A DNA stretch of 64,000 nt from Ginglymostoma cirratum (Eukaryota). The stretch is taken from assembly GCA_024137785.1 (NCBI GenBank), contig JAHRHZ010000004.1:24349432-24413431 (forward strand), read 5' to 3'. Under the pieces are notes generated by a model, which ran no database searches, was not told the origin of the DNA, and saw nothing but the letters and a program-made list of their open reading frames with translations. How positions within the stretch are numbered: position 1 is the first letter of the stretch; every line of letters begins with the position of its first letter. Below are positions 9,559 through 60,096 of this stretch, one piece after another. The position numbers were made by a program, and so were the translations under genes.

Positions 9559-9792
9559 GATAAAAACCGAAAGAACTGCGGAGGCTGTAAATCAGGAACA
9601 AAAGCAGAAGTTGCTGGAAAAGCTGAGCAGGCCTGGCAGCATCTGTGAAGAAAAAGTCAGAGTTAACGTTTCGGGTCTGGTGACCTTTCCTCAGTTCTGG
9701 GAAGGGTCAACGAACCTGAAACACTAACTCTCATTTTTTCTTCACAGATGCTGCCAGACCTGCTGAGATTTTCCAGCAACTTCTACTTTTGC
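9559..9792. mobile_element. Palindromic Penelope-derived insert with two opposed hammerhead-like motifs
   Basis: Arms about 9598-9693 and 9697-9791 are reverse complements; weak TSD aatgatcag/aatgaccag. Confidence 0.8.
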
Positions 9793-10017
9793 AGTCAATG
9801 ACCAGGAAGTTTTTACCCTTGATCTATACTGAGTAACCAGATCTCAGGCAGATAACAATAGATCCTCAGAATCCCTGGTCCAGAGAAGAGAGAGAAAGAG
9901 AAAGAGGAGAGCCAAATAAAGCCAAGACTCACATTTGGTTCCTTCTGGTTGAAGCAGGACCTTATGTTATGTCAGAGCAGTGAAGGCAAAAGCTGAACAG
10001 AGCCTCCATTCAGACTG

Positions 10018-11429: not shown

Positions 11430-11532
11430 CAAACAAAAACAGAAAGCACTGGGGAAACTCAGCAGGTCTGGCAGCATCTGTGGAGAGAGAAACAAAGCCA
11501 GTGTTTCGATTCCAGCAACCCTTCTTTAGAAC
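11430..11532 (-). mobile_element. Short Penelope-derived insert
   Basis: aactcagcaggtctggcagcatctgtggagagagaaac shared with 9620-9660 and 40740-40790. Confidence 0.75.
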
Positions 11533-18085: not shown

Positions 18086-19113
18086 GAAAACAAAAAATGC
18101 TGGAAATCACAGCAGGTCAGGCAGCATCCACGGAGAGAGAACAAGCTAATGTTTTGAGTCCAGATGCCTCTTCATGAGAGCTGACATAATGTGTGGAGCA
18201 TTTATGCAATAGTTGGGAGGGGGGTGAGGGTTGGAGTGCTGGGGGAGAAAGGGCGTTGATAAAGCAGATTAAGTGTTCAGAATGGCAGAACAATGGTGTG
18301 TCTAACTGCCAGACTGGAAAGAACACACAGTCCCACTAGAGGGGAGGTCGGACATGGTGACAGAGAATGAAACAAGTAAAGCTAAAAGAAAGGAAAGGAT
18401 TCACAAGTTGAAGGTGTTGAACTCAATATTAAGTCCAGAAGGTTGTAAAGTACCTTGTCTGAAGATGAGATGTTGCTTCTCCAGTCTTCGGTGAACACAT
18501 TAGAGTTTAGAACAACCAATTCTTGTTTTGAGAAAGCAACTTTTATGTAGTTGTATGTCCTGTGGCATTTCATAGGACCATTATCAAACAAAATTTGACA
18601 CCCAGCCACTGAGCAGACATTAGAACAGATGATTCACCGTTTCCTTCTCTTCACTTGGAACTATGTGCACCACATGGACTGCAACAAGATAGGAAAATGG
18701 CTCACATTCTCAAACGCAATTAGGAGTGGGCATAAAATGCTGCAATGCTCACGTCCATAAAAGAACAAGCAAAACCTCTGTGCCCCATCTATCAACTACT
18801 GACTATGCGGTATGAACAATAGATCTTTTACGGTGAAGAATTCAGGTACATGAAAGCCATTTTATGATTAATCATAGATGAAACCTAAGATATAGATAGC
18901 AGAAGAAAATGCTTCCTGTACTATTTCTGACCTTCGCTGGAGCATTGCTGCATGCCGAGGGCAGACAAATGGACATGTGAGCAGGATATTGTGTTAAAGT
19001 GACTGGCTATGGGAAGGTTAGGTCTCTTCATGGATGTTGCCTGACCTGCTGTGATTTTCAGCAAGTTTTATTTTCAGTACAGATTCCAGCATCTGCAATA
19101 ATTCGCTGCTATG
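18086..19113 (-). mobile_element. Penelope-like element 3' fragment with inverted termini, interrupted by a 443-bp insert
   Basis: gttgaactcaatattaagtccagaagg is antisense to 40405-40432; 10-bp TSD ttttaaagat at 18076-18085 and 19114-19123. Confidence 0.85.
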
Positions 19114-35619: not shown

Positions 35620-35769
35620 AGATAACACAGTGTGGAGCTGGAGGAACACAGCAGGTCCCCAACCCAAAACGTCAACTTTCCTGCTCCTCTGATGCTGCCT
35701 GGCCTGCTGTGTTCCTCCAGCTCCACACTGTTATCTCTAACTCCAGCACTGGCAGTTCTTACTATCTCC
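35620..35769 (+). mobile_element. Short Penelope-derived insert with 5' inversion
   Basis: Perfect 12-bp TSD aaatgaatccat (35608-35619, 35770-35781); first ~35 bp are an inverted copy of an internal segment. Confidence 0.88.
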
Positions 35770-39716: not shown

Positions 39717-40793
39717 TCTGAAATGTCCACTCTCTTCCTCAACCGAGGACTCCCCAGTTCTGTAGATGACAGGGCCCTCAGCTGGGTCTGACCCAACTCC
39801 TACGCTTCAGCCCTCATCCCTCTTCTCCCTGCCCATAACAATGATAGGGTCCCCCTTGTCCTCACCTACCATACAGAGGATCATCAGCCACCATTTACGA
39901 TTCCTCCAGCAGGATGCCACCACCAGACACATATTCCCTTCCCCTCCCTTGTCAGCCTTCAGAAAGGATTGTTCCCTTCGGGACAGCCTGGTCCACTCCT
40001 CTTTCACTCCCAACAGCCTCCCACACGTCCCGCAGCACCTTCCCCTGCAACTGCAGAAGGTGTAACACCTGTCCATTTACTTCCTCCCAGCTCAGTATCC
40101 AAAGTCCCAAAAATACCCTCCAGGCAAAGCAGTGCTTTACCTACACTTCACCCAATTTAGTCTACTGCATTCACTGCTCACAATGTGATCTCTGTACATT
40201 GGGGAAACAAAGCATAGACTGGATGACCACTTCACGGAATGCCTACGTTCTGTCTGCACAAAAGATCCTGAGCTTCCATTTGCCTGCCACTTCAACACAT
40301 CACCTTGTTACCTGGCCAACATCTCTGGCTTGCTGCACTGCTCCAGCAAAGTTTAGCACAATGTCAAAGAACAACATACCATATTCCATTTGGGAACTCT
40401 GCAGCCTTCTGGGCTCAATATTGAGTTCAACAGTTTTGGGGCATGAGCTTCTCCTGTGTCCTTACCCTAACCTCCACACACTAAGCCTTGTTATCACATG
40501 ATCTGTTATTACACACAACTCATTGTTATCCACTAACACTCCCCATTAAGAGCTATTCATCCTCCTAGCCTGACAGTTATCCAGTTCTTTGTCTGTCCAA
40601 CTGTTCTTCTCTTTCTTTGGGCTCTATCTCCATCTATCGTTTACTCCTCACACCCTCATGTCCCACCTTCACTTCTGCATAAAAATCAACATTTTTCTAT
40701 TTACCATCAGTTCTGAGGAAGAGTCAGAATGTTAACTTAATTTCTCTCCACAGATGCTGACAGACCTGCTGAGCTTTTCCAGCAATTTCTGAT
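39717..40793 (+). mobile_element. Penelope-like element 3' part (GIY-YIG endonuclease region)
   Basis: AFRKDCSLRDSLVHS, FPCNCRRCNTCP, FTYTSPNLVYCIHCSQC; TSD-like ttgaagttacc (39706-39716) / ttgaagtttcc (40794-40804). Confidence 0.9.
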
Positions 40794-42153: not shown

Positions 42154-42216
42154 AGGACATTTATTTGAGAAGGGCATGAATGGATATTGACTAAAGACAA
42201 TTAAATGGAGTCAAGG

Positions 42217-42307
42217 ATAACACAGCATGGAGCTGGAGGACCACAGCAGGCCAGGCAGCATCAGAGGAGCAGGAAAGCTGACGTTTCAGATTGGGACCCT
42301 TCTTCAG
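42217..42307 (-). mobile_element. 91-bp Penelope-derived insert
   Basis: 14-bp TSD aaatggagtcaagg (42203-42216) / aaatgaagtcaagg (42308-42321). Confidence 0.85.
42280..42307 (-). ncRNA. Minimal type I hammerhead-ribozyme-like core
   Basis: CUGAAGA-A-GGGU-CCCA-AUCU-GAAA-C-GUC: intact core boxes, stem II with GU pairs, palindromic ACGU in place of stem III. Confidence 0.6.
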
Positions 42308-43276
42308 AAATGAAGTCAAGGTTGAAATTAGCCACGGTCTAGTTAAATGACAGAACAGGCACAAAGAGTCTACTGATTCCAAGTTCCATGAGTTTTGTTA
42401 GAACAAACAGGAGGACTAAAACAGAAAGTGCTCCATTCTTTAACACTAATACAGCTTGCCAGAGAGTCTTATGAATTGGATAAATGTTCACCTTGCCAAT
42501 TTACACATATCGCAGACCTTGGGGATGAATGAAGAATGGGTGGAGGAGGATATTAAATTAGGCCGTTGCAATTTGTCAAACCCGAAATTGCAATTTGACC
42601 GTAATTAGAAATTTAAAGGTTATGAGCAAATTCTTTGCGGTCTGCTTCTGGGCCGAGTCCTGACCTGTGAAATTGGCCGAAATCAAAGTGGTTGGAGATT
42701 GTTCAAATCACCACAGCTTCTGCGGCTGCCTGATAGTTTTCTCATTTCGGATACACTCAGTAATGAGGCAGCTGTGCTTAGATCAGTCCTTTTCAAACCC
42801 CTAGGCCCACATAATTTAAACAGAACAAAGCAATGAATGAAACAAAAACGTAAGTACAAGTAAAATCCGTTTGCCTGAACTTTCAGAACCAAATTGTCAA
42901 TCCCTAGGGACTACACATGGATCTTGAGTCTGCAGGATGGAGATTTCAGTTTAATAGAAAAGTTTGTGCATCGGAGAAATCTGTCTCACCTGTCTGAATA
43001 GCCTTTTCTCATCCTTAAGTATTTTTCTGTTTCTAAGATACATTTTGGGATGTTCTCTAATTTTAAAGCAGCTATATTCTCACAATTTGTTTTCTGTTCT
43101 TGCATCAGGCGCTGGTTTAGAATGTCAGGAGGGGTTATAGTTGGTTGCAAAATTGAGGGAACTTCACTCTACAATTGACATCCGCTATATTTAAACATGA
43201 GTATTTCACAGGGCAGCATGGAGGAAAGCATAACTAGCACCTAGTATATTAAATTTAGATTCACCACCTGCCACAA

Positions 43277-47660: not shown

Positions 47661-50358
47661 TATGGGGACAAAAGATAAGATGTTACCCCCGACTGATGAT
47701 AGTAGAACGAGGATGGAGTATGGGAGGGAAGTACTATGTAGTGTGTTTCTCAAACATGGGAGCTGCTGGTGAAGATAAAACATTGCCCACAGGAGTAGCA
47801 CACGGGATTTAACGTAGCTGTTCGAAAATCTCAGTAAGTTCTTTCACGTTTAATGATCATGGATTTTCAGCACGGGCAGTGTGTTCCAGAAGGGTAGTGA
47901 GGAGAAGATATGTTGAACACCTCATTTCATGCAAATGCCTTGGAAGGGTGCGTTAGCATACTATGAACCATTGTTGGACAAAATGCATTGAGGAATATAC
48001 TAATAATGGCAGTCAATGTGTCAGCAATCATTACACTAGTGGTATCTTCAATTTACAGTACAAAAGGGAATCTGGTGAAGAAGCTGCCAGAATATAACCT
48101 TATCCTTGTGCATGGAAAATATCTGTGGTAATCTGGCAACACAGTTCAGGAGAAATTTCATGTTGAAGAAAGATTCTCTCGATTGTTGGAGTTGATCAAA
48201 TTGGCATATTTCACATGCCTTTATTACATAATCAATGTCCTTACTAATTCTGGGCTGATGCATTGATCCATGTACTAATCTCTTGGCTTCTTCTGTGTCC
48301 ATATAACCTTTATGTATATGGTCTAGCACGTGATATGTAGAGTTGTGGAATTACCACTCGTTTACCTTTGCAAATGATGGTCTTAGAGAGTGGTAATTCA
48401 TCGCTGAATGACTAAAATGAACATACTAGATCAGGGATCTGTTAGTTGTATTCAGGTCACTTGCCAATGGTAGTGATGGTCATCATCTAACATAGCTTGG
48501 TAGATCTGCTGTGCTGACTGTAGCCAACTTGTATGAAATCAGTGTTGATACTTACTTTTCGCAGATTCAATATCCGTTCTTGTGTCTAATTAAATATCGT
48601 TGCTCCTTAAAAGTGTTGGAAATTGGCTAAAAGCATTGGAGGTGGCAATTTGGGAATGTCACTTGCATTGTACTTCTATCTTGTACTCTCAGATCTTCAC
48701 AATTAATTATTGTGGTCGAGGAGATGTACTGGTGAGAGATTTTCAATACATCACTTCTAATTGTTTGTGGTTGGTATGAATAATGAATTTCTTGTCATAT
48801 TGGTGCTTGATGAAAACTATAGCAAGAGTGTTCCTCTCAGTATTGGAGTAGTTATAAAGCAGTTTTGGGATGCATCTATTTCCAACATGGTAATCTTTTA
48901 GGAATCATAATATTGAAGTACATACTCTGCTGATGACGGAGCATTTTTGAGGTTGGAAAATATGTAGGTGATCTTTCTGCTGTATGCATATATACATATA
49001 CTATAAATGGCGTATCTTTGCAGAGAAAATTTCAAATAAAAGAGACTCTGGTTGGAAACATATGGGTTAAAAATTCAAAGCAACGGAGACACCTTTGTAA
49101 CCTATCTTTAGTCTGCAGTGTAGGCAGCTACTGTACATCTTCTGTTTTGGTAGAATCAAATCTAATACCAGTTGTCGAGTACATTGAACTGAAGACATTG
49201 ATTTGTCTCATTCGATTTGACATTTTTTACAACTGAAAGCAAAACGCTGCTTCTTTTCTGCCGTCATCAACTGATGGCAGTTTGTCATGTTCTTCCAAGA
49301 ATGTGATATCGTCTGCAAAGCAGAGACAATCTATCAGCTTTTTGATGATACCTTCCATACGTTGTTGGAATATGTCCTGGCTGATCAATAATCTGATTGG
49401 TAATCTGAGGTAACAGTTTCAACCGACTAGTCTTCTAAAAGTCGTTAGTTTCTTTGGCTCAGGGGAAGATGTATAGACCAATACCCATTCTCTGCATTGA
49501 GCTTGGAAAAATATTAACCACCTGAGAACTTGGAATGAAGCTATTCCAGGGTAGGAGACTTATGTGAGCATCTCTATACAGCAACATTTAGATCACCTTG
49601 GATCTGCCATCTTTCTTTAAAGCGCATATATCCTCACCAATCAGTGTGTACTTGACTTTCCTTTTGATGTTGTTTTGTACAATGGAACCCAATTCCAGTT
49701 TGAGGTTTTCTTATATGTGCATGTTGCATTTAAAGGGAGGTTCATTGCTGCGTTGGATATCAACTTTCAAATGTAGCATTGCATCACCTTTAAAGTTGCC
49801 AATAGGATCAAGCTAATTTTAGGCCAAGGTTAGTCAACTGGTAAACAAGTGTGATGTTGACATCTGGATTAATCTGCGTTGCAAATGGTGGATTTATCAC
49901 CTCATGGACTGTGACACTATGTAGATTCATGCATTCTGGTTAATTTGTAATAGGTGGTTAACAATAGAACTGGCTTCAGGTGTCCATCTTGGATATCCAT
50001 ATTGATATTGAAGACTGATGCAAATGTATGTGGTGACAGATCTATTATAAACAGTTAGCATATCTTGTATGGATGGCATCATGCTGTACTAGTTTTCCTG
50101 AGCACTTCTGGAGATGCTTGTTTCACATGTTAGCCCAATGTCATCTTGTGGAACACAGATTGCAAACATCCTAAAATGCTGGACAAGATCTTGGTGGGTG
50201 ACAAGCCACATCAGATACAAAAGCTGGATGTCCTACTGACTTTTTTGATTGTTGCAAAAGTTGTACCAGAGTCGAGCACTTGTAAATGCTGCAGGTTTGC
50301 TACAATTGCATCAAATTTGTGTCCTCCTGCAAGCACAGCGTCAACAGTACATTCTTTG

Positions 50359-50490
50359 ATTTCTGATGAAGGGTCTAGGCCCGAAACATCAAGTTTTCCT
50401 GCTCCTATGATGCTGCTTGACCTGCTATGTTCATCCAGCCCCATGCTTGTTATCTCAGATTCTCCAGCATCTGCAGTACCTTTTATCTCT
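50359..50490 (+). mobile_element. 132-bp Penelope-derived insert in the Gypsy element
   Basis: Perfect 13-bp TSD agtacattctttg (50346-50358, 50491-50503). Confidence 0.9.
50363..50390 (+). ncRNA. Minimal hammerhead-ribozyme-like core
   Basis: CUGAUGA-A-GGG-UCUAGG-CCC-GAAA-C-AUC; differs from GAAACGUC of other copies by a CpG transition. Confidence 0.6.
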
Positions 50491-50946
50491 AGTACATTCT
50501 TTGGGTTTGCCCAAAAATGCCTTTCTGAAGGATTTGGTGGGTGTAGAGACAATGACCAGTTCTTTAAGACTTTCAGCTAAATTTGCTTTGGTGAAACCAC
50601 ATTCTGTACCTTTGAATTCTTGATTCTTTCCTCTGACAGTTATCAGTATGAGCTGAACTCAAGCCTGTATGTCTTGAAATTGACAGAAACTCGAAACTGA
50701 CCTTACAAAATCTGAAAAATTTTGTTAGGATCTTTACAGTTATTGTCAGAAATACCAGAGTATTTTATTCTTGTTTATAGTGCTCAAAATGCAACGTCAT
50801 TCTGTTAGGTATGTGTCGATCCAAAAAGGAAAGGTTAGTTCTTTTTTTTTGAATAATGGAAGTTCTTCTAGAATGTCAATGAATTGCAAGTTCATGGGGA
50901 GATACTAGTTTTCAATCTTTACTGTGTGGCTTTATGCTCTGTAAAA

Positions 50947-59991: not shown

Positions 59992-60096
59992 ATAAGTTCT
60001 GAAGAAGTCATACTGGATTCGAAGCATTAACTCTTTCCCTCTCCATACATGCTGTCAGACTAGAGTCTAATTTCTCCAGCATTCGCTGTATTTGTT
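59992..60096 (+). mobile_element. Short Penelope-derived insert with degenerate hammerhead
   Basis: AGTT-CTGAAGA..GAAGCATT-AACT; 13-bp TSD ttacaccatttac (59979-59991) / ttacatcatttac (60097-60109). Confidence 0.8.

Follow-up and report, generated by a model that had tools for sequence, protein, structure and literature searches.

Short copies of a Penelope-like element of Ginglymostoma cirratum share a 5' boundary at the edge of a hammerhead motif, 31 nucleotides downstream of a TATA-like box found in long copies

A 91-bp insert in the genome of Ginglymostoma cirratum is a stub of the pseudo-LTR (pLTR; hammerhead plus tail) of an endonuclease-positive (EN+) Penelope-like retrotransposon, and does not constitute a separate family. 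Insertions of EN+ Penelope-like elements (PLEs) are described as variably truncated at the 5' end (PMC8557442, PMC3846280), whereas here about half of the copies that reach the hammerhead motif end in a single 16-nt window, 31 nt below a TATA-like box. We give somewhat better than an even chance to the explanation that transcription starts at the ribozyme edge and that the element's reverse transcriptase (RT), priming 92 or 127 nt inside the RNA, runs off its end and leaves promoterless, dead stubs.

The insert lies in a 64,000-nt stretch of contig JAHRHZ010000004.1 (the window), and all element coordinates are relative to the C of CUGA as position 0. It occupies 42217-42307 on the minus strand, represents positions +0 to +90 of a Penelope-like pLTR, namely the hammerhead motif and the leader as far as the first RT start site, and has homology both to the 3' end of RT/GIY-YIG elements and to their 5' leader. 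Target-site duplications (TSDs) of 14 bp with one mismatch adjoin it on the 3' side (42203-42216) and on the 5' side (42308-42321) of the element; direct repeats of this kind are expected by chance at about 4e-5, even across 169 offsets. The insert thus agrees with an earlier note on this DNA, which had described a TSD-bounded unit of 91 bp starting with CTGAAGA and keeping GAAAC-GTC. The same note had it starting exactly at the core; the start is indeed near the core, but is placed only to -5..0, because the last 5 nt of the target repeat (42308-42312) equal the element's own -5..-1 (CATTT), a microhomology that covers the 5' strand of stem I and the likely start site.

Other copies in the window show related boundaries. 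A 132-bp copy of main-family subfamily C (50359-50490, plus strand) extends from A(-4) to the second RT start site, has a perfect 13-bp TSD (50346-50358 and 50491-50503), and carries GAAAC-ATC instead of GAAAC-GTC in its core. A decayed short copy of a third, older family (59992-60096, plus strand; 13-bp TSD with one mismatch) starts 7 nt ahead of its core, with the stem I strand at 59995, the core at 59999 and GAAG in place of GAAA. Both starts are within 7 nt of the core, as the note had said, and the palindromes that it placed at 719 and 9559 do pivot at the motif: a head-to-head pair of the main family (719-920; TSD 705-718 and 921-934, 14 bp with one mismatch) turns at +4/+5, and a head-to-head pair of a second Penelope family (9560-9796; 9-bp repeat with one mismatch at its ends) turns at the stem I edge, about -4..-2. 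The copies at 9559 and 59992 belong to Penelope families distinct from that of the insert at 42203. Additional to the sites named in the note is a main-family head-to-head pair at 35620-35769 with a perfect 12-bp TSD, whose two arms have been shortened beyond the core, to +12 and +57. Decayed pieces of other Penelope families were found at about 11449-11523 (minus strand), 18099-18173 (minus), 19033-19053 (plus) and 40746-40783 (plus).

The core of the focal insert (42280-42307, minus strand) has the layout of a minimal type I hammerhead (as in PMC4209133): CUGANGA, one extra A, a 4-bp stem II, GAAA, a palindromic ACGU that replaces stem III, and GUC, with the cut predicted between 42280 and 42279. 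The 3' strand of stem I (+28 to +31; 42276-42279, minus strand) makes three of four pairs with -4..-1 in this copy. The core had been called intact, which is right for all of its letters but not for its stems: stem II includes two G-U pairs, one of them the closing pair, stem I has a U-C mismatch, the two stems together have an energy of +4.4 kcal/mol, and the focal insert gave no hammerhead match in Rfam at either threshold. The monomer folds no better than shuffles (z-score 0.34). In subfamily C, 13 of 17 long copies and 9 of 10 short ones have a perfect core, and in 13 copies across families 86% of cells of the hammerhead pairing are paired, versus at most 48% when the pairing is slid, though this does not exceed shuffles. 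Subfamily B keeps the core and just two of the four stem I pairs; this weak stem I suggests that cleavage is dispensable for the spread of subfamily B. Metazoan PLE hammerheads (PMC4209133) share with these motifs the cores CUGANGA and GAAA, a single additional base ahead of stem II, G10.1-C11.1 in the majority of copies, a short stem I, a palindromic 15.2-16.2 without a stem III loop, and an occurrence mostly as single dispersed motifs from truncated PLEs. The present motifs differ from them in that stem II is just 4-5 bp and the focal stems are weakened, and the ribozyme is a putative one.

The earlier note had linked the insert to Penelope-like elements, and the unit is in fact the end module of an RT/GIY-YIG element. 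Among the best 30 genomic matches, 8 extend upstream into coding sequence. A single ORF linked to the hammerhead unit encodes RT, a Cys-rich linker and, C-terminally, a GIY-YIG domain (Pfam RVT_1, E = 1e-5; GIY-YIG, E = 7e-4; both under the curated cut-offs in decayed copies). The full order is 3'UTR, TATA-like box, hammerhead, tail, 5'UTR, ATG at about +165, RT, Cys-rich linker and GIY-YIG; the complete layout, with the module ahead of the ORF, is present in loci L152 and L132, and the upstream 3'UTR is carried by 15 of 40 ORF-continuing copies. The same module also stands downstream of GIY-YIG, which makes it a pLTR by partial tandem. Main-family 3' ends fall at +91-94 in 41 of 140 copies and at +127-130 in another 41 of 140, an inverted partner accompanies 16 of the 34 short copies in the position-picked sample described below, and TSDs of 11-16 bp bound 12 of 39 solo short copies versus none of 117 swapped controls. 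The ORF with RT and GIY-YIG, the partial tandem, the optional tail of 30-40 bp and the inverted 5' copies are features of EN+ Penelope-like elements. In the 5'-truncated EN+ PLE insertions on record (PMC8557442, PMC3846280), too, a C-terminal GIY-YIG comes after RT, the pLTR holds a hammerhead, TSDs are present, and partial tandems, inverted copies placed head to head and an optional tail of roughly 35 bp are described. The linker ahead of GIY-YIG contains a C-x-C-x2-C-x2-C or C-x4-C-x2-C stretch; a Cys-rich linker between RT and endonuclease is reported as common to Neptune and Nematis (PMC8557442), which suggests an element of Neptune or Nematis type. Contigs assembled from public runs have loose ends at both 3' ends; contigs of this kind cannot reveal starts.

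Some copies have more complex structures. Short inverted pieces lie between TSD and stub in L201, L203, L188 and L102 (1499, minus strand), of which some copy the 5' end of the element (fold-back) and others the tail (short second-strand priming). Large inverted pairs of long 5'-truncated copies occur at L127:4450-8300 (arm identity about 94-95%) and in L146/L153. ORF-internal junctions that pass into another unit's 3'UTR occur upstream of the match in L224, where there is microhomology, and downstream of it in L211; these junctions look like template jumps between RNAs.

The 5' boundary was mapped in copies anchored on sequence downstream of the predicted cut site. A position-picked sample of 100 10-kb stretches (44 wholly masked; 542 kb readable) of the 4.36-Gb genome contained 80 main-family copies, or about 148 per Mb of readable DNA, in keeping with the abundance that had been claimed; extrapolation from the 542 kb gives about 6e5 copies genome-wide. 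Of these 80 copies, 34 have their 5' end at -7..+8, 27 run on past it, masking hides the decisive place in 10, and the other 9 end downstream. The share that stops is therefore 34/61, or 34/71 if every masked case is counted as long, and these shares may be shifted by the masking, which is non-random. From the rate of upstream truncation, 3.8% of ends would be expected in -7..+8 (P = 7e-34, with 56 unmasked copies at risk). Among young copies anchored on the tail (59 in the set), 29 of 47 stop at the motif edge, and in the second family 18 of 23 do so. Samples added later were weaker and count against a model in which the edge is a start site: in another 20 position-picked stretches, with 110 kb readable, 3 copies stop, 2 pass and 10 end downstream, these last being mostly trimmed arms of palindromes, and 11 of 29 neighbouring copies stop at the edge. 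Neighbour copies from ORF-anchored loci (31/70) were excluded as biased to long copies.

The pooled set of 192 copies, less 15 masked ones, comprises 177, of which 77 stop at -7..+8, 65 pass and 35 end at +9 or later, so that 77 of the 142 copies that reach the motif stop in that interval. The 5' ends of these copies are far from random, and the earlier note's claim that the 5' edge of the ribozyme, not the cut site, is the boundary is upheld by these counts and by family 2. The modal end is -3 (24 copies), with 8 copies at -4; a mode at -3 counts against a start at A(-4). No pile of ends was found at the predicted cut site (+28) in the pooled copies; the 7 ends at +24..+29 are no denser per base than the 18 at +9..+23, so the cut site is not the boundary. 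Copies of the two 3' classes stop alike (32/54 and 31/53), and the stop is therefore one of position, not of length. Short copies make up 40 of 57 in subfamily B, the highest share among five classified subfamilies, 21 of 47 in C, 4 of 17 in B2 and 1 of 8 in B3, the last count itself including ORF-anchored loci. Copies of subfamily B (for example L191-L220) are young and abundant.

Copies that extend into the coding region behave differently. Of the 40 distinct copies reaching on into 5'UTR or ORF, 4 have their start at -4/-3 and 15 extend further upstream, and among 14 copies that span at least 1 kb of the ORF and reach the upstream hammerhead, 2 stop and 12 pass (Fisher P = 0.003 versus 63/108), in a set that is rich in subfamily B3. 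Searches for B3 tail copies found none, and this confound of the 2/14 result therefore stands. Long and short copies are intermixed in a tree of 106 copies built from 83-nt segments (28 changes of label versus 31.6 +/- 2.6 in shuffles, P = 0.12), a weak negative for a separate short lineage at the low resolution of this tree, and copies identical over 64 tail bases occur in both forms. Most 3'UTRs remained unclassified when they were compared with tail types for recombinants.

Upstream of the boundary, the 35 long copies have a TATWWAW motif that begins 31 nt ahead of A(-4) in 28 cases and at -30 in one more, six copies lacking it, and in four of five reference copies it is the sole match within up to 600 nt. 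Three long copies of family 2 have TATAAA, AATAAA or TGTAAA at -29, and two copies of family 3 have TACAAA at -33 and TATAAA at -30. Short copies have no TATA-like box upstream. A(-4) of families 1 and 2 lies inside an initiator-like YYANWYY, a match that is partly dictated by the letters of the ribozyme. YYANWYY is the consensus of the initiator, and a TATA box is usually spaced at about -30. A search for a cap-derived G was negative, a G preceding 3 of the 8 starts at A(-4). The TATA-like box of family 1 (-35..-27) reads AATAAA on the opposite strand, and in the family-2 copy L306 this hexamer is at -33 on the sense strand; the box may have a role in polyadenylation. The Penelope start site is reported to lie within the pLTR (PMC2377424), and rotifer pLTRs are described with TATA plus Inr-like motifs (PMC3846280). 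In D. virilis the start is placed some 120 nt ahead of helix I and separated from it by an intron (PMC2377424, PMC4209133), so a start at the ribozyme is not a universal layout; copies in D. virilis are also described as reaching past their own start site (PMC2377424).

From the layout of the element and the distribution of its ends we infer the start site, the run-off and the joining as follows. A promoter of TATA plus initiator in the upstream pLTR would start the RNA at about A(-4), the first base of stem I. The element endonuclease would nick the target DNA, and RT would prime within uncleaved RNA at +92 or +127, as in the anole element, copy 95-130 nt and run off the RNA 5' end. The cDNA end would then be joined to the target, often via a few bases of microhomology, to give a TSD of 11-16 bp; priming from both target strands would allow two cDNAs to join head to head as a palindrome. 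Stubs without a TATA-like box would be dead on arrival and spread no further, and for copies that reach further upstream, tandem RNA made by read-through, or a jump onto a second pLTR, may be the source. Internal RT starts, an uncleaved RNA template and an absence of RNA-seq reads ending at the cut are reported for the anole element in the text of PMC11167929. The 2/14 stops among ORF-spanning copies are hard to square with a single mRNA start, and fit poorly unless read-through RNA or template jumps are common. A variant that is possible, though on the doubtful side, is copying of the minus strand as in retroviruses: RT would prime near the mRNA 5' end, make a "strong-stop" cDNA of 95-130 nt and jump to the 3' repeat.

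It is unlikely, but deserves weight, that the RNA extends further upstream and that the element protein itself makes the -4 end, either by a GIY-YIG nick at the AT-rich site beside the hammerhead or by a halt of RT at a protein-bound RNA domain, likened to the template boundary of telomerase. The passage of many copies upstream (65/142 pooled; 12/14 ORF-spanning) would be natural on these terms, and for the anole protein the main cutting site is reported to be an ATT motif in the DNA of its own ORF-pLTR junction (PMC11167929), while family 1 has ATT at -4..-2. Family 2, however, has AGTT there yet stops equally, ends do not accumulate at the ATT-rich box at -35..-27 (4 of 34 lie in -8..-40), an intrinsic stop in 58% of passages would give about 8/14 where 2/14 was seen (P = 0.001, subfamily-confounded), and the spacing of the TATA-like box would go unexplained. 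The earlier note had envisaged a non-autonomous micro-retroelement system, and a proposal along these lines, that short units propagate themselves in the manner of SINEs, with internal signals driving their transcription from -4 and the Penelope protein mobilising them in trans, is in our judgement distinctly improbable. It would suit the very high copy number (about 148 per Mb of readable DNA), the variation of the short share among subfamilies (B 40/57, C 21/47, B2 4/17) and the proposal of retrozymes as non-autonomous PLE derivatives (bioRxiv 10.64898/2026.07.22.740005), and internal priming by RT would give no 3' flank. The unit is nonetheless the end module of an autonomous element; no short-only lineage appears on the 106-copy tree (P = 0.12, a weak negative), copies identical over 64 tail bases are both long and short, the TATA-like box is missing from the short copies, and no head-to-tail monomer arrays were noticed in the sampled match tables. 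In addition, the RNA needed by the anole protein is reported to reach +172 of the ORF (PMC11167929), and the stubs have no such region.

That the folded ribozyme, through closure of stem I or as a dimer, stalls RT or defines the packaged unit is less probable still. Both subfamily C and family 2 have a stem I that ends precisely at -4, and a U-G/G-C exchange distinguishes the two at -3/+30, but covariation in the 13 cross-family copies was not above shuffles (212/500), and RT would first meet the 3' side of the fold (+31, +19), not -4. The stop persists in subfamily B, where stem I is broken to 2/4 pairs and yet most copies are short (40/57); the fold is therefore unlikely to set the edge, contrary to what the earlier note had implied. 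Self-cleavage of the hammerhead as the source of the 5' end is hardly credible: a few copies do start at +24..+29 (7/177; in family 2, 4/29 at +25..+29), but at the same rate as at +9..+23, the pile of ends is about 30 nt upstream of the cut, and the retained core sits on the piece that cleavage would remove. Other candidates were rejected, namely a stall at the C-run upstream (absent from family 2, which stops equally), a spliced leader (short copies have no common upstream sequence except inverted arms) and a limit of tether length (both 3' classes stop at the same place). Runs of T before the core are longer in short copies (11/28 versus 0/40), a difference set aside as evidence because a T-rich flank can give the same result.

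One of the closest known systems is PAc (Poseidon of Anolis carolinensis; PMC11167929), for which two internal RT start sites matching two genomic 3' ends, an optional tail and insertions not bounded by the ribozyme cut are likewise described, and in which priming on both strands would explain palindromes. PAc differs in having its ATG inside the hammerhead, whereas that of the shark element is about 165 nt downstream of the core, and no pile of 5' ends is reported in the text of that source. Non-LTR retrozymes (bioRxiv 10.64898/2026.07.22.740005) share with the present copies their non-coding character, a type I hammerhead and an origin from PLE pLTRs, but are described as head-to-tail tandems of at least two full-hammerhead units, whereas the copies sampled here are solo, head-to-head or the ends of long elements and match the end of an autonomous element. 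The focal copy is solo between its TSDs.

As a class of mobile element the focal insert is ordinary: PLEs, their hammerheads, tails and inverted copies, and dispersed truncated motifs are already on record (PMC8557442; PMC6765202; bioRxiv 10.64898/2026.07.22.740005). New here are the TATA-like box 31 nt before A(-4) in long copies and the position of A(-4) in an initiator-like motif; neither a fixed 5' end at the hammerhead edge nor the TATA spacing was found in the open-access literature searched. The sharp 5' end, in about half of the estimated 6e5 copies, preserves a fossil record of a discrete end, of RNA or of cDNA, and together with the TATA-like box at -31 it amounts to a prediction of the start site to one base. 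It also shows that the bulk of the insertions derived from uncleaved RNA; hammerhead cleavage is reported to be dispensable in vitro for the anole element (PMC11167929). No obvious mechanism by which Penelope rebuilds its pLTR is offered in the text of PMC2377424. If the strong-stop reading is true, cDNA would stop at the start site on the first base of the hammerhead, the ORF would be copied only after a jump to the matching repeat at an RNA 3' end, the hundreds of thousands of stubs would be failed jumps, and repeated jumps would rebuild the pseudo-LTR.
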